A stretch of 64,000 bases of DNA from Flavobacteriaceae bacterium (GCA_030148025.1 JASBUG010000037.1:1-64000), one strand, 5' to 3'; shown: positions 3,796 to 46,890, counted from the first letter of the stretch. A program made the numbers and translations. The notes: generated by a model from the sequence alone, not told the origin.

Positions 3796-4659
3796 TTATA
3801 GTACGTTAAGTAGTTGTTCTTTAATTTTTTCTAACTCATCTTTCATTTGAACCACTAACTTTTGCATTGGTGCATAATTGGCTTTAGAACCGATGGTATT
3901 AATTTCTCTACCTATTTCCTGACCAATAAACCCTAATTTTTTACCATTAGAATCGTTAGAATCTAGTGACTTTTCAAAGTACTCTAAGTGATTGTGTAAG
4001 CGCACTTTTTCTTCAGTGATATCAAATTTTTCTATATAATAAACCAACTCTTGTTCAAACCTATTCTCATCCACTTTTTCTTTAAGTTCGGCAATACCTC
4101 TGTTTAAACGTTCTCTAACATTTTCAATACGTTCAGGATCCATAGCTATTACCTGTTCTAGTAACGCATCAATGTTTTTAATTCTATTTCTAAAATCGTT
4201 TTCAAGAGCATTACCTTCTTCTGTTCTATAGGTGTGAATTTTGTCTAGTGCCGAATTAATTCCGTCTTCAATGGTTTTCCATTCATCTTCATCAATTTCC
4301 TCACGCTCTGTGTTTAAAGCATCTGGCATTCTAACAGCCATTTTTAAAAGCTCAGTTTCATCCCCATTTACAATATCTTTTAGCTGTTCGATATATTGTT
4401 TTACCACAGGTTTATTTACTTGGCTTGATGTTTCTTCGCCAGTAATTTCCATATATAGTGAAAAATCGACTTTACCTCTTACAAGCTTTGAGGCAATTAG
4501 TTTTCGTATTCCAAGTTCTTTTTCTCTGTATATGGAAGGCATTCGCGCATTCAAATCAAGGTTTTTGCTATTAAGAGATTTTATTTCTATTGAAATTTTT
4601 TTAGTTGGGAGCTGTAATACAGATTTCCCATAACCTGTCATTGATTGTATCATTTGCAA
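3796..4659 (-). CDS. yicC: YicC/YloC family endoribonuclease
   Basis: MTGYGKS N-terminus, YicC-like N-terminal region and DUF1732-like C-terminus. Length 287 aa. Confidence 0.75.
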   Translation of the reverse strand: MQMIQSMTGYGKSVLQLPTKKISIEIKSLNSKNLDLNARMPSIYREKELGIRKLIASKLVRGKVDFSLYMEITGEETSSQVNKPVVKQYIEQLKDIVNGDETELLKMAVRMPDALNTEREEIDEDEWKTIEDGINSALDKIHTYRTEEGNALENDFRNRIKNIDALLEQVIAMDPERIENVRERLNRGIAELKEKVDENRFEQELVYYIEKFDITEEKVRLHNHLEYFEKSLDSNDSNGKKLGFIGQEIGREINTIGSKANYAPMQKLVVQMKDELEKIKEQLLNVL

Positions 4660-4697
4660 AATTTAAAAGTTGCACAAAGATAACTAAATCACTTATT

Positions 4698-5243
4698 ATG
4701 CAAGAGATAAAACCTCTAAACATAATTGACCAAAAGAATTACCTTTATTGGCAAAATAAAATAATTATGTATATAAAGGAATTTGATATTCGCTGGAGTG
4801 ATATAGATGCTAATAAACACTTGGGGAATTCATCATATATTGATTATATGAGTCATGTACGTATGTCTTTTTTTGATGAGAATAAAATGGGGCTTAAAGA
4901 GATGACAAATTTAGGATTAGGACCTATAGTATTTTATGAACACATCTATTACTTTAAAGAAATTCTTTTAGAAGACAACATTAAGGTGAGTTTAGAAATA
5001 GCAGGATACAGTGACGATTGTAAATTTGTTATGTTCTCTCATAATTTTTATGATGATAAAGGGAAACATTTAGCGCATTGTGAGATGCTTTTTTCCTGGA
5101 TCGATCTCAATACTAGAAAACTGGCGCAAGTACCAAGTGAACTAGCAGAAAAAATTAAACGTTTTCCGAAAGGAAAAAACTTTAAAACCTTGACAAAAGA
5201 AGATACTAGAAAGCACGGGAAAAGACCTATTGATCTGGTTTGA
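4698..5243 (+). CDS. Acyl-CoA thioesterase (hot-dog fold, 4HBT-like)
   Basis: The start is moved to the ATG at 4698 to avoid overlapping yicC. The FDIRWSDIDANKHLGNSSYIDY motif is typical of YbgC/4HBT_2 thioesterases. Confidence 0.5.
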   Translation: MQEIKPLNIIDQKNYLYWQNKIIMYIKEFDIRWSDIDANKHLGNSSYIDYMSHVRMSFFDENKMGLKEMTNLGLGPIVFYEHIYYFKEILLEDNIKVSLEIAGYSDDCKFVMFSHNFYDDKGKHLAHCEMLFSWIDLNTRKLAQVPSELAEKIKRFPKGKNFKTLTKEDTRKHGKRPIDLV

Positions 5244-5307
5244 AATTACTTATAAAATAAAAATTGTGTAACTTAATACCATATAAACTAACTAAATTTT
5301 TAATATT

Positions 5308-5748
5308 ATGGAAGGAATGGATATTAATTGGATTGCTCTGGTAGTTGCTGCAATCATTCCCTTAGTGACAGGTTTTATTTGGTATAATCCTAAAGTTTTT
5401 GGAACGGCCTGGATGAAAGAAACAGGAATGACTGAAGAGAAAGCAAAAAGTATGAACCCTGGCAAAACTTATGGATTGGCAGTAGTATTTGCTTTTTTAG
5501 TTGCCTTTAAACTTTGGGGAGAAGTAATGTTAGGAGGTGCTCCTAGTGATCCTCATGGTACCGAAGCATTTTTAACTTTTAAGCATGGTGCATTACATGG
5601 TGCAGTAGTTGGGGTACTTATAGTACTACCTGTTTTTGCAACCAATGCATTATTTGAAATGAAGTCGGCTAGATATGTACTTATTAATGTTGGCTATTGG
5701 ATAGTTACTATGGCACTAATGGGAGGTACGATTAATGCGTGGACTTAG
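5308..5748 (+). CDS. DUF1761 family membrane protein
   Basis: INWIALVVAAIIPLVTGFIWYNPKVFGTAWMKETGMTEE matches my recollection of the DUF1761 consensus. Three TM segments. Confidence 0.5.
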   Translation: MEGMDINWIALVVAAIIPLVTGFIWYNPKVFGTAWMKETGMTEEKAKSMNPGKTYGLAVVFAFLVAFKLWGEVMLGGAPSDPHGTEAFLTFKHGALHGAVVGVLIVLPVFATNALFEMKSARYVLINVGYWIVTMALMGGTINAWT

Positions 5749-34109: not shown

Positions 34110-34804
34110 CCTATAAATGTTTAATTATAGACGATGAGAAACTGGCAAGAGGGCTGATTCAAACACATTTATCACAATTAGATGATTTTGAATTGATAGC
34201 CTCATGTGCCAGTGCAATTGAGGCAAGTAAAATATTGCAAGAAGAAACTATTGATTTATTGTTTTTAGACATTGAAATGCCTGTTTTAAAAGGTACAGAC
34301 TTCTTTAAAAATCTAGTGCATAAACCCAAAGTGATTTTTACAACAGCTTATAGAGATTATGCCGTAGAAGGGTTTGAACTAAATGCTGTTGACTATATTT
34401 TAAAACCTATTACTTTTCAGCGTTTCTTTAATGCCATAGAAAAGTTTAGAGCTTTACAAAAAGGAACTAATTCGGAACCAACTACCGTTACAACTTCAGA
34501 AAATAAAGATGCTTTTATTTATATAAGAAAAGACAGAAAACAGGTTAAGGTGCATTTAAATTCCATTTTATATATAGAAAGCTTAAAGGACTATATTAAA
34601 ATACATTTAGAAGAAGAAACACACGTAACAAAGTCTAGTATATCAGCTTTTGAAGAAAAGTTAGACGCTAGGTTTATTAGAGTGCATCGTTCTTACATTA
34701 TTAATAAAGATAAGATTACAGCCTATACCAAGAATGATGTTGAAATTGGGAAAATTGAAATCCCAATAGGCGACAACTTTAGGGGGAATTTCTCTGCTTT
34801 TTAA
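34106..34804 (+). CDS. LytTR-family response regulator
   Basis: REC domain (LIIDDE...D55 region) plus a C-terminal LytTR domain (IRVHRSYIIN). Confidence 0.8.
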   Translation: MTYKCLIIDDEKLARGLIQTHLSQLDDFELIASCASAIEASKILQEETIDLLFLDIEMPVLKGTDFFKNLVHKPKVIFTTAYRDYAVEGFELNAVDYILKPITFQRFFNAIEKFRALQKGTNSEPTTVTTSENKDAFIYIRKDRKQVKVHLNSILYIESLKDYIKIHLEEETHVTKSSISAFEEKLDARFIRVHRSYIINKDKITAYTKNDVEIGKIEIPIGDNFRGNFSAF

Positions 34805-35945
34805 AAAGATAGCTCAGATGAACAATACTCATACTTAAAAACACGCCTAAATATCCAATAAATAGTAACCACATTGTGGAGGTGTTGAATAATTTGTAGC
34901 TTAGGTTTGGGAACACTAAAACTGCTTCAGAAAAAAGAAAACTAATTATATAGAATACCCAAGTAATTGTATTGACTTTATGTTTTAATTCAACCCAAAT
35001 AAAAGGCACAAAAAGACCTAAGAATAATAGATGTAACCACGCAATTAATAAAAACCTACTCTCAACAACTTGATCAGCCAGATATGGATGACTTCCAATA
35101 ATGTTGCAAGATACAATTAGTAAAAGTGTACCATATAAAAACCGATATGATTTTTGTGTATGGATAAATGCTTTTCTAAATTTTAGAAGTATTACAAATA
35201 ATGCTATCGAACTTATAAATCCAATAAATTGAATGCTCCAGTGATCAAAACTATAATCTAAGGAATGTGCGTAAAGTCCAATAAGAGAAAAGGTAATGAT
35301 ATACACATGTTCCTTTTTAAAGATAACGGCAGATCGCTGAATAAGTATTGCTAATAGCCAAATAAAAAGAGAGCCAAAATATTGAAAATGTAAATAGAAA
35401 AATATGGCTTGTTGGTACCATGGTGATTCTTGCATTTCCATAGCCATTAAAGGACCTAAGCAGTAAGGACCTATAGATGAAATGAAGTGAAAAACAATTC
35501 CTATTTTAACTAACTGGGTTAATGGATTGTTTTTATTGATTCTTTTCCAAAGGCGTATTAAAAAGATATAGCTTACCCATAAATGTAGCGTAGAAAATAC
35601 AATGGAAAACAAAGCATATCCTTGAATAATAAAAGTGATTAACATTCCAAATACACAAACCTGTAGAGCTAGATAATATTTATAGGAACGCTTGTCAATG
35701 CCATCAGTAAAATTTGTCCATAGCAACACTACCAAAGCATTGAACAAAAACCCTAAAAGCATTACGTGTGAATGTGAATGCAATACATTTTTTAAAGGAA
35801 ACCCTGGAAGCTCGCCTGTAAAAGCATAGCGTAAAATAAGACCAATTGCTGCTCCTAAAAACCCCAAAAGTATGGGATAGAACCAGAGTTGTTTTTGTGT
35901 TATATTAGATTTCATTTCTTCGTCATGCTGAACTTGTTTCAGCAT
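34779..35945 (-). CDS. Polytopic membrane protein, possibly NnrS family
   Basis: About 12 TM segments. LHSHSHVMLLGFLFNAL resembles the NnrS WHxHEMxFG motif. The real start may be MKSN, 30 nt downstream. Confidence 0.35.
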   Translation of the reverse strand: MLKQVQHDEEMKSNITQKQLWFYPILLGFLGAAIGLILRYAFTGELPGFPLKNVLHSHSHVMLLGFLFNALVVLLWTNFTDGIDKRSYKYYLALQVCVFGMLITFIIQGYALFSIVFSTLHLWVSYIFLIRLWKRINKNNPLTQLVKIGIVFHFISSIGPYCLGPLMAMEMQESPWYQQAIFFYLHFQYFGSLFIWLLAILIQRSAVIFKKEHVYIITFSLIGLYAHSLDYSFDHWSIQFIGFISSIALFVILLKFRKAFIHTQKSYRFLYGTLLLIVSCNIIGSHPYLADQVVESRFLLIAWLHLLFLGLFVPFIWVELKHKVNTITWVFYIISFLFSEAVLVFPNLSYKLFNTSTMWLLFIGYLGVFLSMSIVHLSYLFKKQRNSP

Positions 35946-35954
35946 CTCACATAT

Positions 35955-36233
35955 TTAATAGTTCAAAGTTTCTAGATTTGGATTTAATTTTCTAATTAAA
36001 TTTAGTTTCCATTCTTTATGCCAATTCTTTAATTGTTTTTCTCTTTTTATTGCTTGTTCAATATCTGTAAACTCCTCAAAATAAATAAGGTCTTTAATTT
36101 GATACTTTTTTGTGAATTTTGATGCGACCTCATCGTAATGTTCATATAATCTTTTGGATAAGTTTGTAGTAACTCCAATATAGAAAGTCGTTCTATACTT
36201 ATTGGTTAATATGTAAATAAAGCTATTTTGCAT
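35955..36233 (-). CDS. Small GIY-YIG nuclease-domain protein
   Basis: IYILTNKYRTTFYIGVTTNLSKRLYEH carries the GIY-YIG motifs. Length 92 aa. It is flanked by palindromic hairpins. Confidence 0.7.
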   Translation of the reverse strand: MQNSFIYILTNKYRTTFYIGVTTNLSKRLYEHYDEVASKFTKKYQIKDLIYFEEFTDIEQAIKREKQLKNWHKEWKLNLIRKLNPNLETLNY

Positions 36234-36266
36234 AGATGCGACCCTGAAACGAGTTCAGGGTGACGA

Positions 36267-40132: not shown

Positions 40133-41941
40133 ATGAGAAAACTACTAGTACTTTTATGTGTTGTGGCTTTTGTTAGCTGTAAAAAATCAGAAGAAAAAAG
40201 TAACACATCAACAAGCACAGATACTCAAGTATCAACGACCTATCAAATTTCATTTGAAAACGCAGTACATCATGAAGCTGAAATTTCAGCAACATTTACC
40301 AATCTAAAAAATGATGAAGTGGAGTTTCGTATGAGCCGTACTTCGCCAGGGCGCTATGCTTTACACGAGTTTATGAAAAACGCTTACAATGTAAAGGCAA
40401 CAGATGGCGCTGGAAATGTTCTAGAAACTACACGACCTGATCCATATTCTTGGAAAGTAAAAGGACATGACGGAACCGTAAAAGTGAGTTATACCTTATT
40501 CGCAAATAGAGGTGGCGGAACCTATGCTCAAGTTGATGAAACTCATGCACATCTTAATATTCCAGCGACGTTTATGTATGCGCCAGAGTTATCAAATGAT
40601 GCCATGGAAGTAACCTTTAATGTACGTGAAGATTTGGGCTGGAAAGTGGCCACACAGTTAAAGCATGTAGAAGGAAACACCTATTATGCAAGAGACTTAC
40701 AATATTTTATGGATAGTCCAACAGAGATAAGTAACCATAGTGTACGTTGGTTTGAAGTTGATGGACAAAACATTCATTTTGTATTACATCACAATGGAAC
40801 CGAAGCTGAATTTGACACTTATTTTGAAAGCGTAAAAAAAGTAGTATTACAACAAAAAGCAATTTTTGGAGAATTGCCAAAGTTCGACTACGGCGATTAT
40901 TATTTCTTAGGATGTTATATTCCAAATGCATCTGGAGATGGAATGGAACATAGAAATTCTACCATTTTAACAACAACTAGAAGTTTAGCAAATAATGGTA
41001 TAAAACGTAATATTGGAACAGTATCACACGAATTTTTCCATGCTTGGAATGTTGAACGTATTCGCCCAGAATCCTTAGAGCCATTCGATTTTGAAGAAGC
41101 AAATATGAGTGGTGAATTATGGTTTGCTGAAGGCTTCACAAGCTATTTTGATGACTTAACTTTATGTAGAGCAGGAATAATGAGTCGCGAAGATTATGTA
41201 AGTGGTCTTGCAGGTAATTTTAACTATGTATGGAATTCTCCAGGGCGTAAATTCTTTAATCCAATCGAGATGAGTTACCAAGCACCATTTGTTGATGCTG
41301 CACGCTCTGTAGATCCTGTAAACAGAAGTAACACATTTATTTCTTACTACTCTTATGGAAGTGTTTTAGGGCTTGCTTTAGATTTATCACTTCGTGAAAA
41401 AGATTTGAATCTAGATGATTATATGAAATTGGTTTGGAACAAATATGGAAAAAACGAAAAACCATATACTGTTGCCGATCTTCAAAATACGTTAAATGAG
41501 TTTGCTGGAGACAAATTTGGAGATGAGTTCTTTAATAAATATATCCATAAAAGTGAGATGCCAGATATGAAGCGTTTATTTGAAAGTGTTGGCGTATCAT
41601 TAACTCAAGACCCGAATGTTGTATTATTTGGTGCTGGGTTAAATAGAAATAACATGATATCTGGAAATACAAAAATAGGATCAAGCTCATATAATGCCGG
41701 ATTAGAAAGAGGCGATAAGATCATTCAAATAGGAGATTATGTTCTAAATGATAATTTCAGTGACATTTTAAAGAATTTCAAACCTGGAGATGAAACAAAA
41801 GTTGTTTACGAACGTCTTGGTAATAAACAAGAAACTAATCTCACGTTTGTAAATAATCCATCGTATACTATCGAAATAAATAAGGACGCATCAGATACTC
41901 AAAAAGCTAAACGTGACGATTGGTTAAGTAGTAAAGAGTAA
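40133..41941 (+). CDS. M61-family metallopeptidase (glycyl aminopeptidase-like) lipoprotein with a C-terminal PDZ domain
   Basis: Lipobox (LCVVAFVSCKK), HEFFHAW zinc motif, and a PDZ-like region (GLERGDKIIQIGDYVL). Confidence 0.7.
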   Translation: MRKLLVLLCVVAFVSCKKSEEKSNTSTSTDTQVSTTYQISFENAVHHEAEISATFTNLKNDEVEFRMSRTSPGRYALHEFMKNAYNVKATDGAGNVLETTRPDPYSWKVKGHDGTVKVSYTLFANRGGGTYAQVDETHAHLNIPATFMYAPELSNDAMEVTFNVREDLGWKVATQLKHVEGNTYYARDLQYFMDSPTEISNHSVRWFEVDGQNIHFVLHHNGTEAEFDTYFESVKKVVLQQKAIFGELPKFDYGDYYFLGCYIPNASGDGMEHRNSTILTTTRSLANNGIKRNIGTVSHEFFHAWNVERIRPESLEPFDFEEANMSGELWFAEGFTSYFDDLTLCRAGIMSREDYVSGLAGNFNYVWNSPGRKFFNPIEMSYQAPFVDAARSVDPVNRSNTFISYYSYGSVLGLALDLSLREKDLNLDDYMKLVWNKYGKNEKPYTVADLQNTLNEFAGDKFGDEFFNKYIHKSEMPDMKRLFESVGVSLTQDPNVVLFGAGLNRNNMISGNTKIGSSSYNAGLERGDKIIQIGDYVLNDNFSDILKNFKPGDETKVVYERLGNKQETNLTFVNNPSYTIEINKDASDTQKAKRDDWLSSKE

Positions 41942-41942
41942 A

Positions 41943-42377
41943 ATGAATAATGAAATTTCTAGAAAAAGTTGGTTTTCAAGAAATAAATCTTGGGCACTTC
42001 CAACAGGAGGTTGTTTATTAGTTGTTTTGGTTGTGGTTTGTATAGCGCTCATGTTTTTTGTGGGCCTAAAGGAAACTGTTTTTGAATCTGGACCTTATAA
42101 ATATGCTGTAGAAGAAGCTTCAAACAATTTGAAAGTAAAAGAAGTTTTAGGAGATGATATTATTACAGAATCAATATTCAGCGGTAGAATAACTATAGAT
42201 AATGATCAACATGCAGATTTTAAAATCCCATTAAAAGGTAATAAGAGCAAAGGATTTGTTTTTGTAATTGCCGAAAGAGAAAATAAAACTCAGGATTGGC
42301 AGTATAAAAAACTGTATGTCATTGCTGAAAAATCAACAGATACGATCCACTTACTCAACTCTAGAAATACCGAATAA
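41943..42377 (+). CDS. Coa1-like small membrane protein; paralog 2
   Basis: KSWFSRNKSWALPTGGCLL TM anchor. A paralog of the gene at 28897. Confidence 0.45.
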   Translation: MNNEISRKSWFSRNKSWALPTGGCLLVVLVVVCIALMFFVGLKETVFESGPYKYAVEEASNNLKVKEVLGDDIITESIFSGRITIDNDQHADFKIPLKGNKSKGFVFVIAERENKTQDWQYKKLYVIAEKSTDTIHLLNSRNTE

Positions 42378-42417
42378 TTTTACAGAAAATACTAAAGCAA
42401 ATATGTAACTTTATAAC

Positions 42418-43677
42418 ATGTTTGCTTTAGTTGATTGTAATAATTTTTATGCTTCGTGCGAGCGCGTATTTAATCCTAATTTACGCCAGAAACCTATTGC
42501 AATTTTATCTAATAATGATGGTTGTGTGATTTCCAGAAGCGATGAAGCTAAAGCATTAGGTTTGCCAATGGGCGCACCTATTTTTAAATGGGAAGGCTTC
42601 TGTAAAGCAAATAACATTAAGGTATTTTCATCAAACTATCCTTTGTACGGAGATATGAGTACGCGTGTGATGAAAATATTAGAGCAATTTACACCAGATG
42701 TTGAGGTTTATAGTATAGATGAATCCTTTTTAGAGTTTAAAGGATTTGATTATGTTGATTTTGATGCATATGGACTCGAAATCCGAAAACGTGTATTAAA
42801 ATGGACAGGAATTCCAACTTGTGTTGGAATAGCTCCAACTAAAGCATTATCGAAAGTAGCCAATAAAATTGCGCGAAAATTTCCTAAAGAAACTAAAGGG
42901 GCTTATGTTATTGATTCAGAAGAAAAGCGTGTAAAAGCACTTAAATGGATACAGCTTAAAGATGTTTGGGGAATTGGTCGAAGGTTGCATAAACGCTTAT
43001 CAGCAAAGGGTTGTAAAACAGCGTATGACTTTGTGCAATTACCAGATGATTGGGTACGTCAGCAGTTTTCTATTACTGAATGGAAGCTTAAAAAAGACCT
43101 TGAAGGTGTTCCTAAGCTTACCTTGGATATGAGAGAAACTAAACGAGCAATCGCTACAACTAGAAGTTTTGATTTTACTTATGATGATATTAATTACATT
43201 AAAGAACGTGTTTCTACATTTGCAGTAACTTGTGCTGAGAAATTGAGGCAGCAACACTCTAGTTGTTATATGATTATTGTAACATTAAGTAGCGATAGTC
43301 ATAAGCGGAATTTAAAACAACATCGAGGGAGTCAAGTTGTAAAATTATCCTACCCAACTGATTCTACATTAACCATAAGTAAGGCTGCTGTAGAAGCTGT
43401 AGAAACTATTTTTAAACAAGGAGTTAAATATAAAAGAGCAGGTGTTATTGTTACAGGTTTAGTGCCTACAGAAAATCATCAGTTGCATTTATTTGACGCT
43501 GAAAATCCTAAGCACAAACCTTTAATGGGAGTTATGGATAAGCTCAATTATAAGTATGGTGATTATAAATTAAAATTAGGTAATCAAGATTTAGAGCGTA
43601 CGTGGAAAATGCGTCAAGAACGATTAACACCTCGATATACAACAAATATTAAAGATATTATAAAAGTAAAATGCTAA
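42418..43677 (+). CDS. umuC: Y-family translesion DNA polymerase (UmuC-like)
   Basis: ALVDCNNFYASCERVF...ILSNNDGCVISRS matches the UmuC/DinB N-terminal catalytic motifs. Length 419 aa. Confidence 0.85.
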   Translation: MFALVDCNNFYASCERVFNPNLRQKPIAILSNNDGCVISRSDEAKALGLPMGAPIFKWEGFCKANNIKVFSSNYPLYGDMSTRVMKILEQFTPDVEVYSIDESFLEFKGFDYVDFDAYGLEIRKRVLKWTGIPTCVGIAPTKALSKVANKIARKFPKETKGAYVIDSEEKRVKALKWIQLKDVWGIGRRLHKRLSAKGCKTAYDFVQLPDDWVRQQFSITEWKLKKDLEGVPKLTLDMRETKRAIATTRSFDFTYDDINYIKERVSTFAVTCAEKLRQQHSSCYMIIVTLSSDSHKRNLKQHRGSQVVKLSYPTDSTLTISKAAVEAVETIFKQGVKYKRAGVIVTGLVPTENHQLHLFDAENPKHKPLMGVMDKLNYKYGDYKLKLGNQDLERTWKMRQERLTPRYTTNIKDIIKVKC

Positions 43678-43688
43678 TAACTGTCAGA

Positions 43689-44047
43689 CTGAGCGCAGTC
43701 GAAGTCCAATGAAATATGAATTTTTATTATGTTTATATATTAAGATGTAATGATGACTCCTTTTATATAGGAATTACAAATAATATAAGTAAACGTTTCA
43801 ATGAACATCAATAAGGACTGGATAAAAATAGTTATACTTATAGCAGAAGACCTCTAATTTTGGAATTTAGCCAAGAGTTTAATGATGTTCTTCAAGCAAT
43901 TTATTTTGAAAAGAAGATTAAAGGATGGACTAGAGCAAAAAAACAAGCACTAATTAATGATGAATGGGATATGCTTAAGATTTTAGCAGAATGTAGAAAT
44001 GCGACACATTGTAAATATAAAGATTCAAGCGCTTCGACTGCGCTCAG
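43689..44047. mobile_element. Roughly 360 bp cassette bounded by perfect 16 bp terminal inverted repeats (CTGAGCGCAGTCGAAG ... CTTCGACTGCGCTCAG), carrying a GIY-YIG ORF; MITE-like
   Basis: The inverted repeats were read directly at 43689-43704 and 44032-44047. The cassette fills the umuC-umuD intergenic space. Confidence 0.55.
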
Positions 44048-44072
44048 CGGGACAAACCGAACAAAAACCTAA
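43716..44072 (+). pseudogene. GIY-YIG nuclease-domain ORF interrupted by an in-frame TAA at 43812-43814
   Basis: MNFYYVYILRCNDDSFYIGITNNISKRFNEHQ*GLDKNSYTYSRRP... The frame is continuous across the stop. It is a paralog of 35955-36233. Confidence 0.55.
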
Positions 44073-44074
44073 AT

Positions 44075-44515
44075 ATGTTAATAAAAGAAACTAAAAACCT
44101 CACGTTCTATACACCAGAAACAGTTAAGGATTCTGGAGCACTATTTTTTGATGCTGGAATTTCAGCAGGATTTCCATCGCCAGCAGAAGATTTTAAAGAG
44201 CATCGTTTATCACTAGATGAAGAACTGATAACTAATAAAGAAGCAACTTTTTTTGCACGTGTTAGCGGTCAATCAATGATCAATGCTGGATTAGATGATA
44301 ACGATTTATTAGTGATAGATAGAAGTCTGGAACCTACTCATAACAAAATTGCTGTTTGTTTTTTAGATGGAGAGTTTACCGTAAAACGGTTAAAAGTTGA
44401 AAATGATGGTGTTTGGCTACAACCTGAAAATGAAAATTACCAACCTATAAAAGTCACAGAAGAAAACAATTTTGTTATTTGGGGAATTGTTACAAATGTG
44501 ATAAAAAAAGTATAA
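44075..44515 (+). CDS. umuD: UmuD/LexA-like S24 peptidase
   Basis: An Ala-Gly cleavage site (ISAGFP), Ser nucleophile (SGQSM) and Lys (TVKRLK). Confidence 0.8.
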   Translation: MLIKETKNLTFYTPETVKDSGALFFDAGISAGFPSPAEDFKEHRLSLDEELITNKEATFFARVSGQSMINAGLDDNDLLVIDRSLEPTHNKIAVCFLDGEFTVKRLKVENDGVWLQPENENYQPIKVTEENNFVIWGIVTNVIKKV

Positions 44516-44520
44516 AGCTG

Positions 44521-45066
44521 TTGAGTAATATTGTTTATAAAAGAGCTCAAACAAAAGAAGAACTACAACAAATTCTAGCACTTCAGCGCGCTAATATTCC
44601 ATCAGCAATTTCTAAAAATGAAAAAGAAGCAGAAGGCTTTGTAACAGTGCATCATACATTTGAAATATTGAATGCAATGAATGCAAAGTGCCCTCATGTT
44701 ATTGCTACTTATAAAGAAAAGGTAATAGGTTATGCCTTATGTATGCATCCAGAATTCAAGAATGATATTGAAGTTTTAAAGCCAATGTTCGAACAAATCG
44801 ATGCTTGTCTAAAAGGAGATAAATCCTATTTGGTAATGGGACAGATTTGTATTGACAAAGCTTTTCGTAAACGAGGTGTTTTCAGGGGGTTATATAATTT
44901 TATGAGAGAAGAATTGCAGTCGAGGTTTGATATGATTGTTACAGAAGTTGATGAAGCTAATGTAAGATCTATGAATGCTCATTTTGCAATTGGATTTAAA
45001 GTCTTATATTCATATCATTCTAATCAGCAAGATTGGAAAATCATTTATATAAATACGACTAACTAA
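44521..45066 (+). CDS. GNAT-family N-acetyltransferase (putative)
   Basis: Acetyl-CoA-binding-like FRKRGVFRGLY motif. The likely TTG start at 44521 avoids overlap with umuD. Confidence 0.4.
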   Translation: MSNIVYKRAQTKEELQQILALQRANIPSAISKNEKEAEGFVTVHHTFEILNAMNAKCPHVIATYKEKVIGYALCMHPEFKNDIEVLKPMFEQIDACLKGDKSYLVMGQICIDKAFRKRGVFRGLYNFMREELQSRFDMIVTEVDEANVRSMNAHFAIGFKVLYSYHSNQQDWKIIYINTTN

Positions 45067-45078
45067 ACGCAAACACAT

Positions 45079-46890
45079 ATGGTAGAGTTGTCTACGTTTG
45101 ATATTGCATTAATTATCACCTTTTTTGCAATAACATTATTCATTGGAATTTATGTATCTAAACAATCAGGTAAAAGTGCTTCTGAGTATTTTTTATCAGG
45201 ACGAAGTATGCCTTGGTGGCTTCTAGGAGTCTCAATGGTAGCTACTACGTTTTCTACAGATACACCTAATTTGGTAACAGATATTGTTCGTAATAATGGA
45301 GTGTCAGGAAATTGGGTTTGGTGGGCTTTTTTAATAACAGGACTACTAACTGTTTTTGTGTATGCTAAGCTTTGGCGAAAATCACAAGTGAATACAGATA
45401 TAGAGTTTTATGAATTGCGATATGGTGGCGCACCTGCTCGTTTTTTAAGAGGGTTTAGAGCTGTTTACTTAGGAATTATCTTTAATGTGCTAGCTATGGC
45501 AGGAGTAACCTTAGCAGCTATTAAAATAGGAAGTATTATGTTGGGGCTGCAACCATGGGAAACGGTGGTGTATGCTGGAGTTATAACGGTTATTTTTAGT
45601 GCACTTGGAGGGTTTAAAGGTGTAGTGTATACAGATTTTATTCTATTCTTTACAGCAATGGCAGGAGCCATAGGCGCTGCATATTATTTGGTAGGACTGC
45701 CTGAAGTTGGAGGTTTGGAGAATTTATTACAAAACGAAAATGTTGTAGATAAGTTGTCTATTTTGCCAGATTTTAGTGATAAAGAAGCTTTAATAACATT
45801 ATTGATTATTCCTTTAGCAGTACAATGGTGGAGTTCGTGGTATCCAGGAGCAGAACCTGGAGGTGGAGGTTATATTGCACAACGAATGTTAGCTGCAAAA
45901 AATGAGAATCATGCCATAGGAGCAACTTTCTTTTTTAATATTATGCATTATGCTTTGCGTCCTTGGCCATGGATTATTGTGGCTTTGGCATCTTTGGTTG
46001 TGTTTCCAGATTTGGCAAGTATCCAAGAAGCATTTCCAAATGTGGGCGAAGATAAATTAGGTCATGATTTAGCATATTCAGCGATGCTAACAAAATTGCC
46101 TAGTGGTTTATTAGGTTTAGTTTTAGCGTCTTTAGTTGCGGCTTACATGAGTACTATTTCTACACATTTAAATTGGGGAAGCTCGTATATTGTAAATGAT
46201 TTTTATAAGCAGCAGATCAATAAAAATGCTTCTGAAAAAGAATTAGTTCGTATTGGGCGTTTATCAACAGTACTATTAATGGTATTTAGTGCACTATTAG
46301 CTTTAGCGCTTACTAACGCACTTCAATTGTTTAAGTATATATTAATGTTTGGAGCAGGAACTGGCCTTATTTTTATTTTGCGTTGGTTCTGGTGGCGAAT
46401 TAATGCTTGGAGTGAAATTTCGGCAATGTTTTCATCAGGAATAATTTCGTTATTAATTGCATTGACACCTCTTGGTGCAAAATTATTTGGAGAAGATGCA
46501 TTAATGCCTTCTTGGGCTGAATTTCCTTTTGTGGTATTTGTGACAACTGTAATTTGGATTGCAGTAACGTATGTAACACAACCTGAAACTAAAGAAATTT
46601 TGCAACAATTTTATAAAAGAACACAACCAGGTGGTCCTGGATGGAATAAGGTAGTAAAAGAAGCTAAAGATAATGGAGTTGAAATTGTTGATTCCAATAA
46701 AGGTTGGAGTGTTCCTTCGGGAATATTAGCAATGCTTGTTGGCTGTGTGCTTATTTATAGTGTGATGTTTACCACAGGAAATCTTATTTATGGAAATTAT
46801 TCTGATGCATTAATTCTATTAATAGTTTCTGTGGTTTCAGGTGTTATATTAGTTAAACTTTGGAAGAAAATAAAAGCAAATATTCTATAG
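45079..46890 (+). CDS. Sodium:solute symporter (SSS) family transporter
   Basis: 603 aa with about 14 TM segments and an SSS-like N-terminus (YFLSGRSMPWWLLGVSMVATTFS). Confidence 0.7.
   Translation: MVELSTFDIALIITFFAITLFIGIYVSKQSGKSASEYFLSGRSMPWWLLGVSMVATTFSTDTPNLVTDIVRNNGVSGNWVWWAFLITGLLTVFVYAKLWRKSQVNTDIEFYELRYGGAPARFLRGFRAVYLGIIFNVLAMAGVTLAAIKIGSIMLGLQPWETVVYAGVITVIFSALGGFKGVVYTDFILFFTAMAGAIGAAYYLVGLPEVGGLENLLQNENVVDKLSILPDFSDKEALITLLIIPLAVQWWSSWYPGAEPGGGGYIAQRMLAAKNENHAIGATFFFNIMHYALRPWPWIIVALASLVVFPDLASIQEAFPNVGEDKLGHDLAYSAMLTKLPSGLLGLVLASLVAAYMSTISTHLNWGSSYIVNDFYKQQINKNASEKELVRIGRLSTVLLMVFSALLALALTNALQLFKYILMFGAGTGLIFILRWFWWRINAWSEISAMFSSGIISLLIALTPLGAKLFGEDALMPSWAEFPFVVFVTTVIWIAVTYVTQPETKEILQQFYKRTQPGGPGWNKVVKEAKDNGVEIVDSNKGWSVPSGILAMLVGCVLIYSVMFTTGNLIYGNYSDALILLIVSVVSGVILVKLWKKIKANIL

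Follow-up and report, generated by a model that had tools for sequence, protein, structure and literature searches.

The Ssn nucleases are, to our knowledge, the only known site-specific endonucleases of single-stranded DNA (ssDNA), and each nuclease/repeat pair represents a potential tool. A related type of organization is found in REPtrons and REPINs, which depend on RAYT tyrosine (HUH/Y1) transposases with GTAG-tagged REPs. For the UPF0213 proteins, which are also considered here, we know of no flanking hairpin repeats. The Ssn enzymes are single-domain GIY-YIG proteins (CDD cd10448) of about 94 aa, which bind a hairpin repeat (NTS, generalised as the SRM) only as ssDNA and cut just upstream of it, and cleavage of ssDNA beside its flanking repeat has been shown experimentally for SsnA (Chenal et al. 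2025, PMC11893778). The ssn genes typically lie between inverted repeats (NTS-ssnA-NTS), a layout that the authors remarked to be IS-like and RAYT/REP-like. Mobility, or descent from a domesticated mobile element, is raised there as a hypothesis only, in the Discussion, and the accessible text of that paper contains no comparison of filled and empty sites (PMC11893778). A superfamily of CGTC-tagged REPs has also been described, consisting of short tagged palindromes that occur mostly as head-to-head dimers without a dedicated transposase (Di Nocera et al. 2013, PMC3733652).

The locus described here lies in a stretch of 64,000 nucleotides from a Flavobacteriaceae bacterium (GCA_030148025.1, JASBUG010000037.1:1-64000), hereafter the window. 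The 397-bp gap between its umuC-like and umuD-like genes holds one cassette, which is composed of a hairpin unit on the plus strand, a GIY-YIG gene and a second unit on the minus strand, with the tags of both units pointing outward. This is likely to be an inserted and decaying Ssn-like cassette, in which a GIY-YIG nuclease gene stands between two inverted hairpin units presumed to be its cognate sites. Judged by sequence, it is a copy in decay, belonging to a large family in Flavobacteriaceae that is probably sister to the Ssn nuclease/hairpin systems and has a unit of a different class, and the locus points to a very different, strongly conserved cognate site that is missed by the published motif. 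The features of the locus are the following.

42418-43677, plus strand: umuC-like Y-family polymerase gene, left flank (Pfam IMS, IMS_C and DUF4113), 88-90% identical to relatives with a umuC/umuD overlap.
43671-43680, no strand: left copy of the target duplication, ATGCTAATAA, which includes the umuC stop; single in the empty sites L128, L211 and L212, and on both sides of the insert in the window and in L001.
43682-43706, plus strand: left hairpin unit with the tag TGTCA (43682-43686), closing GA (43687-43688) with TC (43705-43706), and the core CTGAGCGCAGTCGAAG (43689-43704).
43716-44027, plus strand: GIY-YIG nuclease pseudogene, ancestral 103 codons and former stop (PF01541, E 2e-18), with 88% protein identity to the intact protein P0001 from the same site.
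43812-43814, plus strand: premature TAA at codon 33, which is AGA (Arg) in the sister copy; the same TAA is present in assembly L130.
44025-44027, plus strand: former natural stop, now TCA; TAA in the sister copy, placed by alignment with L001, L003 and L004 and by the C-termini of homologues.
44030-44054, minus strand: right hairpin unit, inverted, with the minus-strand tag TGTCC, closing CG with CG, and the same 16-nt core as the left unit.
44055-44074, no strand: 20-nt tail AAACCGAACAAAAACCTAAAT that separates the right unit from the duplicated target, common to the window and L001 and missing from other cassettes.
44075-44084, no strand: right copy of the target duplication, ATGTTAATAA, which includes the umuD start; in L001 both copies are the exact 11-mer AAATGCTAATA.
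44075-44515, plus strand: umuD-like S24 peptidase gene, right flank (Pfam Peptidase_S24, E 4e-29).

A sequence-only reading of the window had reported a 16-mer at 43689-43704 with its exact reverse complement at 44032-44047, bracketing a GIY-YIG ORF (43716-44072) between umuC and umuD. Both copies were confirmed in place, as were the GIY-YIG domain of this frame and the domains of the flanking genes; the ancestral 103-aa ORF contains no further Pfam domain. The arms can be extended to 23 nt (43682-43704 and 44032-44054), over which they are 87% complementary. Even with up to three mismatches allowed, the core 16-mer has just two matches in the 64 kb (0.09 expected), and none of 100 shuffled windows contained two or more. 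The low copy number within the window is the only point in favour of an explanation by which an ordinary small gene is flanked by a chance inverted repeat or by an artefact of assembly. This explanation is scarcely credible given the shuffled windows, the recurrence of the same arms in sister contigs and dozens of homologous loci, and the agreement with a separate assembly, Logan contig L130 (run SRR23576962), which is 100% identical to window positions 41416-45138 (3,723 nt), both lesions included.

The nuclease gene is dead in the window genome, having acquired a premature TAA and lost its natural stop, and the hairpin units are intact. The in-frame TAA and the apparent decay noted previously are both real, the TAA being found also in the separately assembled L130. 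The earlier statement that the right arm encodes the 3' end of the ORF needs qualification, for the frame does run into this arm and on to 44072, but only because the natural stop has been lost (TAA to TCA). The reading frames of intact homologues stop 2-25 nt short of the right unit. Codon 33 is a variable position in the family. The window copy keeps all family-invariant residues, and it differs from the sister copy mostly at third codon positions, so that its inactivation is recent.

Searches with the cassette protein returned over 600 homologues and at least 574 metagenome loci, with several copies of the gene in some genomes. Among the best 120 of the more than 600 homologues, those with an organism name are all from Flavobacteriales, nearly all from Flavobacteriaceae, and the proteins are typically 103 aa long, with ..KYKD at the C-terminus and an identity of 70-88% to the window copy. 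The closest homologue among the matches listed is P0001 (88% identity), an intact protein encoded in the order umuC-GIY-umuD on metagenome contigs L001-L004. An AF2 model predicts a single compact domain (pLDDT 89.8). By both HMM and Foldseek comparison the best sequence and structure matches of the cassette family are UPF0213/YhbQ and Slx1. In the HMM search of solved structures, the UPF0213 proteins 1zg2 (E 5e-13) and 1ywl (E 2e-10) came first, followed by Slx1, and the Foldseek search of the PDB matched only UPF0213 (1zg2, 1ywl) and Slx1, with no SsnA structure among the matches. Unlike UPF0213, the flavobacterial family carries an additional helix and a tail at the C-terminus. The 103-aa family has two Cys and two His residues at invariant or almost invariant positions (C11, H31, C93 and H98 in the window copy), including those of the C-terminal ECRNATH motif, and these may form a metal site. 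Slx1 carries a C-terminal zinc domain.

The umuC-umuD site is polymorphic. In L128 (Pontimicrobium sp. IMCC45349), L211 and L212, the three relatives that came closest in the UmuC comparison (88-90% identity), umuC and umuD overlap in ATGCTAA (7 nt) with nothing in between. At the filled sites of the window and L001, about 10-11 bp of the target are duplicated with one copy on each side, and through this duplication umuC regains its stop and umuD its start. The left unit starts 1 nt past the duplicated segment and 4 nt past the umuC stop codon. The locus gives a clean comparison of filled and empty sites, in which the cassette acts as an insert accompanied by a defined duplication of its target. 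The sequence-only reading had also proposed an insertion, and had named as the opposite outcome a conserved gene with no empty sites and a repeat with no other copies. We found a polymorphic site, and both the repeat and the cassette are widespread outside the window, with two unit copies within its 64 kb. The order umuC then umuD, which had been called unusual, is the same in all relatives examined. In the accessible text of PMC11893778 mobility is only hypothesised, whereas a filled/empty polymorphism with a target duplication is seen directly here.

For the host, the insertion has the consequence that the ancestral translational overlap of umuC and umuD is broken. This speaks against a host-serving nuclease of the SOS operon that is co-transcribed with umuC and umuD and whose hairpins act as RNA or DNA signals (processing, stability) with no part in mobility. 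Such a role would agree with the position of the gene inside the umuC-umuD transcription unit and on the same strand, with the annotation of its E. coli relative YhbQ as a DNA damage response exodeoxyribonuclease, and with the retention of an intact copy at this site by the sister lineage. However, the closest relatives have no cassette, the window copy is dead, the same type of cassette occurs in unrelated operons, and the promoter and terminator scan gave no signal above background, which together make the explanation unlikely.

In a tree of UmuC and UmuD, the window clusters with the genomes that have the empty site, and the filled L001 is the outgroup (500/500 bootstraps). Between the window and L001 the cassette shows 87% nucleotide identity and the flanking genes 77% and 81%, with differences at 27/103 third codon positions in the cassette and 244/567 in the flanks (Fisher p=0.0015). 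The cassette is younger (less diverged) than its flanks. The simplest history suggested by these data is one insertion, followed either by precise losses via the direct repeats or by lateral transfer via flanking homology. A single common origin of the two filled sites is indicated by the 20-nt tail that they alone share, and this tail suggests a single insertion and not repeated transposition. Independent transposition into the same site was considered, and is less likely than one insertion with loss or transfer in view of the shared tail. At 12 other canonical cassettes, for which there are no empty sites for comparison, only 6-8 nt chance-level matches were found as candidates for a target duplication, and the single 10-nt match is part of a repeat unit itself. 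Mobility of the cassette is supported by these comparisons, and its mechanism is one that we infer.

A younger cassette at the same insertion point and in the same orientation in two lineages, with empty sites between them, might also be left by a homing endonuclease gene of the free-standing GIY-YIG type, whose product would recognise the umuC/umuD junction in its intact state and cut it, with repair then copying the gene in; the inverted repeat would be incidental. The cassette protein shares its nuclease fold with such enzymes, but it consists of one 103-aa domain and lacks a DNA-binding module. No intron accompanies it, since an Rfam scan of the whole window at the gathering threshold returned no family, and in NCBIfam only the group I intron endonuclease model TIGR01453 was detected, below threshold (19-21 bits against a cut-off of 56). 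The family also occupies many unrelated sites, such as the p450/queG interval in Flavivirga, and the flanking units are conserved family-wide. Homing of this kind is therefore decidedly improbable. The umuC-umuD junction is insertion-prone in this clade, and L129 carries a gene for a 387-aa WG-repeat protein there (4258-5666). In L213/L214 (2758-2840), an 83-nt umuC-umuD spacer contains an NTS-like hairpin, CGTCATTCCGAACGAAATGAAGGAATC, and a degenerate second tagged unit.

The arms of the cassette had been read as TIRs. They are indeed inverted, 23 nt long and accompanied by a target duplication, but each arm, as far as its pattern of covariation tells, is an autonomous oriented hairpin unit of the REP/SRM type and not a plain transposon TIR. 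The unit (TGTCAGACTGAGCGCAGTCGAAGTC) consists of the TGTCA tag, two covarying closing pairs and the 16-nt core. Of 127 unique independent instances of the exact 16-mer, 113 have a Watson-Crick pair at positions -1/+1 (50 expected) and 99 have one at positions -2/+2, with 13 T:G pairs in addition (49 expected), and positions -6 to -3 are GTCA. Beside homologous genes the variants TCGAGCGCAGTCGAGA, CCGAGCGCAGTCGAGG, CTGAGGCACTCGAAG and CTGAGCTTGTCGAAG were found, in which GAG...CGA is invariant and the outer core pairs change in a compensatory manner from CT/AG to TC/GA or CC/GG. Comparison with the second cassette of the window, described below (CTGAA..TTCAG against CTGAG..CGAAG), suggests that the core is probably a hairpin in which two Watson-Crick pairs have been replaced by tandem G.A/A.G. 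In nearest-neighbour DNA folding, single units gave weak and inconsistent minimum-free-energy structures (-4.8 and -5.3 kcal/mol, z -1.7 and -0.55), and the case for a hairpin thus stands on covariation and not on energy.

A scan for the exact 16-mer in 185,579 genomes (596 Gb) produced at least 120 loci, and the flanks of the matches are non-random despite the approximately 280 matches expected by chance. Among the matches listed, the loci come from Flavobacteriia, Hymenobacter, Dyadobacter, cyanobacteria, Acidobacteria, candidate-phyla bacteria, Chloroflexi, Planctomycetes, Sphingomonas and others. The loci L006-L125 have the GTCA tag and covarying closing pairs, mostly with no gene of the family within 8 kb, and in Hymenobacter the unit forms long perfect palindromic doublets.

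The tie between unit and gene was analyzed in 80 metagenome loci picked by protein similarity alone. Their canonical layout has a plus-strand unit 26-60 nt before the ATG and a minus-strand unit 7-25 nt after the stop, with the tags outward. A motif-blind test detected flanking inverted repeats scoring 14 or more in 34 of 71 loci and in 0 of 71 shuffles. At least one unit lies within 150 nt of 60 family ORFs, and there are 5.9 units per 10 kb around family genes compared to 0.12 per 10 kb across 1.05 Mb of control loci (about 50-fold). Proteins that belong to one unit class have an identity of 0.63 and those of different classes 0.57, a difference reached in none of 2000 permutations. This match between protein and unit class fits co-evolution, with a contribution from host phylogeny. 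In relatives the units are also present solo, as doublets and as tandem arrays. L152 has at least ten head-to-tail copies of a 22-nt unit (GTCAGGCTGAGCGGAGTCGAAG) beside a family gene (about 600-820), and L193 a tandem array of 17-nt unit copies (about 330-400). In Methylobacterium bullatum (L126, 1400-1910), a 46%-identical homologue lies between inverted expanded units, TCATCCTGAGG...GGAGCGTAGCGGAGGCCTCGAAGGAGG, which contain an extra inner hairpin and show that the CTGAG...TCGAAG theme reaches the alphaproteobacteria.

These distributions bear on a further explanation, in which the cassette is a MITE or IS remnant whose TIRs serve as binding sites for a DDE-type transposase from another locus and whose GIY-YIG gene is a passenger. 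Like bacterial MITEs, the cassette is small and has inverted ends, an empty site in relatives and a direct target duplication of 10-11 bp. Unlike the element-specific TIRs of MITEs, its ends are common to many phyla and consist of structured, oriented units that covary internally and have a loop conserved across phyla. The occurrence of units singly, as doublets and in arrays, and their link by position and density to one gene family in many unrelated contexts, also speak against it. No transposase was found in or near the element, and no duplication was seen at the 12 other cassettes. We regard the MITE or IS explanation as very unlikely, and none of the alternatives explains the family-wide, oriented and covarying units as well as the Ssn-like model.

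The cassette resembles the Ssn systems in its single-domain GIY-YIG protein of about 95-105 aa, which is detectably homologous, and in its two inverted, oriented hairpin repeats with a 5' YGTCA tag, placed just before the start and just after the stop with the tags outward. Its units, like those of Ssn, are also dispersed, as doublets and in clusters; this applies to relatives, the window having the two cassette copies only. As Ssn-type proxies we used five GIY-YIG proteins from contigs with exact NTS copies, of which one (L269) has the NTS on both sides, three on one side and one none within 500 nt. In L269, which was recovered from viral contigs, the GIY-YIG ORF is enclosed by an NTS(+) and an NTS(-) copy, both exact and arranged as the units are in the window. 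By hhalign, the 103-aa family matched the five proxy proteins with a probability of 98.7% (E 4.6e-16). It matched UPF0213 with E 3.2e-20 and the NTS-flanked proteins matched UPF0213 with E 2e-11, in both cases using three UPF0213 sequences, YhbQ among them. Compared with the Ssn proteins, the cassette proteins appear to form a distinct family with a conserved C-terminal ..ECRNATH.KY tail, which scores at least as close to UPF0213. The units also differ, since the cassette unit combines a short stem with an invariant asymmetric core, whereas the Ssn repeat is a GC-rich hairpin that is paired throughout.

The published SRM search sequence, HGTCWYN(0-2)YYVSBRHN(0-5)WNVSBRGN(0-2)RNCYNB, finds both NTS copies of L269 and has 0 matches in the whole window, L001 and L214. 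It also misses the hairpins of the canonical Ssn-type cassette at 35.9-36.3 kb of the window, and is therefore a poor criterion in this low-GC genome. Literature searches with the unit sequence and its variants returned only irrelevant primer matches, and those on GIY-YIG proteins and REPs nothing beyond the Ssn paper, PMC11893778. The earlier description of the locus as an uncatalogued miniature element is accordingly true in part. Its mobility is supported, but a single-domain GIY-YIG gene between inverted hairpins is a layout already known for Ssn, as described in the accessible text of PMC11893778.

REPtrons, too, have a nuclease gene between inverted copies of a short palindromic repeat that is presumed to be its substrate, and REPtrons/REPINs share with the cassette family the gene-less inverted doublets found elsewhere and a logic of ssDNA hairpin recognition. 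Only the overall layout is common, however, because the cassette enzyme is a GIY-YIG hydrolase and not an HUH/Y1 enzyme, no covalent intermediate or strand transfer would be expected, and the tag is YGTC(A) (TGTCA in the window) and not GTAG. Copies of the cassette unit in Hymenobacter start with CGTCATG, similar to the CGTC-tagged REPs, and the unit belongs to the broad tagged-palindrome type as this is presented in the available text of PMC3733652. Unlike here, the repeats are not linked to GIY-YIG genes in that text, in which the term 'Flavobacter' occurs 0 times and 'Bacteroidetes' once (PMC3733652).

In the Ssn-like model, and by analogy with SsnA, the nuclease would bind the unit in its folded ssDNA form and cut immediately 5' of the tag. 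Both outer edges of the cassette would then receive a cut, in opposite strands, and the units and the gene could be spread by cutting, repair and recombination at such units. At this locus, the cassette would have entered the 7-nt umuC/umuD overlap, duplicated about 10-11 bp and later lost its nuclease function. A GIY-YIG hydrolase by itself cannot carry out strand transfer, and how such a hydrolytic enzyme yields integration with a 10-11 bp duplication is unexplained by the model. Other observations that count against it are the slightly closer profile match to UPF0213, the failure of the SRM consensus in the window, the weak folding of single units, the presence of just two copies of this unit in the window and the absence of a target duplication at the 12 other cassettes, which were examined without empty sites for comparison. 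A more far-reaching reading, which we consider possible although doubtful, is that these cassettes are autonomous nuclease-only mobile units, a GIY-YIG counterpart of REPtrons consisting of a gene and two hairpins and producing a target duplication of about one helical turn. The GAG...CGA core, present letter for letter in more than 10 phyla, would then mark an ancient, horizontally spreading nuclease/ssDNA-hairpin pair, which is distinct from NTS/Ssn and missed by the SRM consensus.

The window contains a second GIY-YIG cassette at 35.9-36.3 kb, with the following features.

35955-36233, minus strand: intact GIY-YIG ORF of 92 aa between two inverted CGTCA-tagged perfect hairpins, tags outward.
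36240-36265, minus strand: hairpin of the second cassette, CGTCACCCTGAACTCGTTTCAGGGTC, with a CGTCA tag.
35921-35946, plus strand: hairpin of the second cassette, CGTCATGCTGAACTTGTTTCAGCATC, with a CGTCA tag.

The protein of this cassette is much closer to the Ssn-type proteins of the NTS-selected contigs, with E 1.1e-23, than to the 103-aa family, with E 2.8e-11 (hhalign), and the element (35921-36265) can be classified from these matches as an intact canonical Ssn-type cassette. Two routes of decay are visible in the window and its relatives, a nonsense mutation at umuC-umuD and an internal deletion to a gene-less doublet at the site of the second cassette. In Pontimicrobium sp. SW4 (L335, 2628-2738), the same bioD-proximal site has both hairpins around a 77-nt gene remnant left by internal deletion, which shows how a cassette turns into an inverted doublet without a gene. 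In L336 only a degenerate right unit is left at this site. The listed ATG of the neighbouring ORF 34779-35945 (minus strand) falls within the hairpin unit at 35921-35945, so that MLKQVQHDE is translated unit sequence, and the true start is probably an ATG approximately 30 nt downstream, as in the SW4 orthologue.
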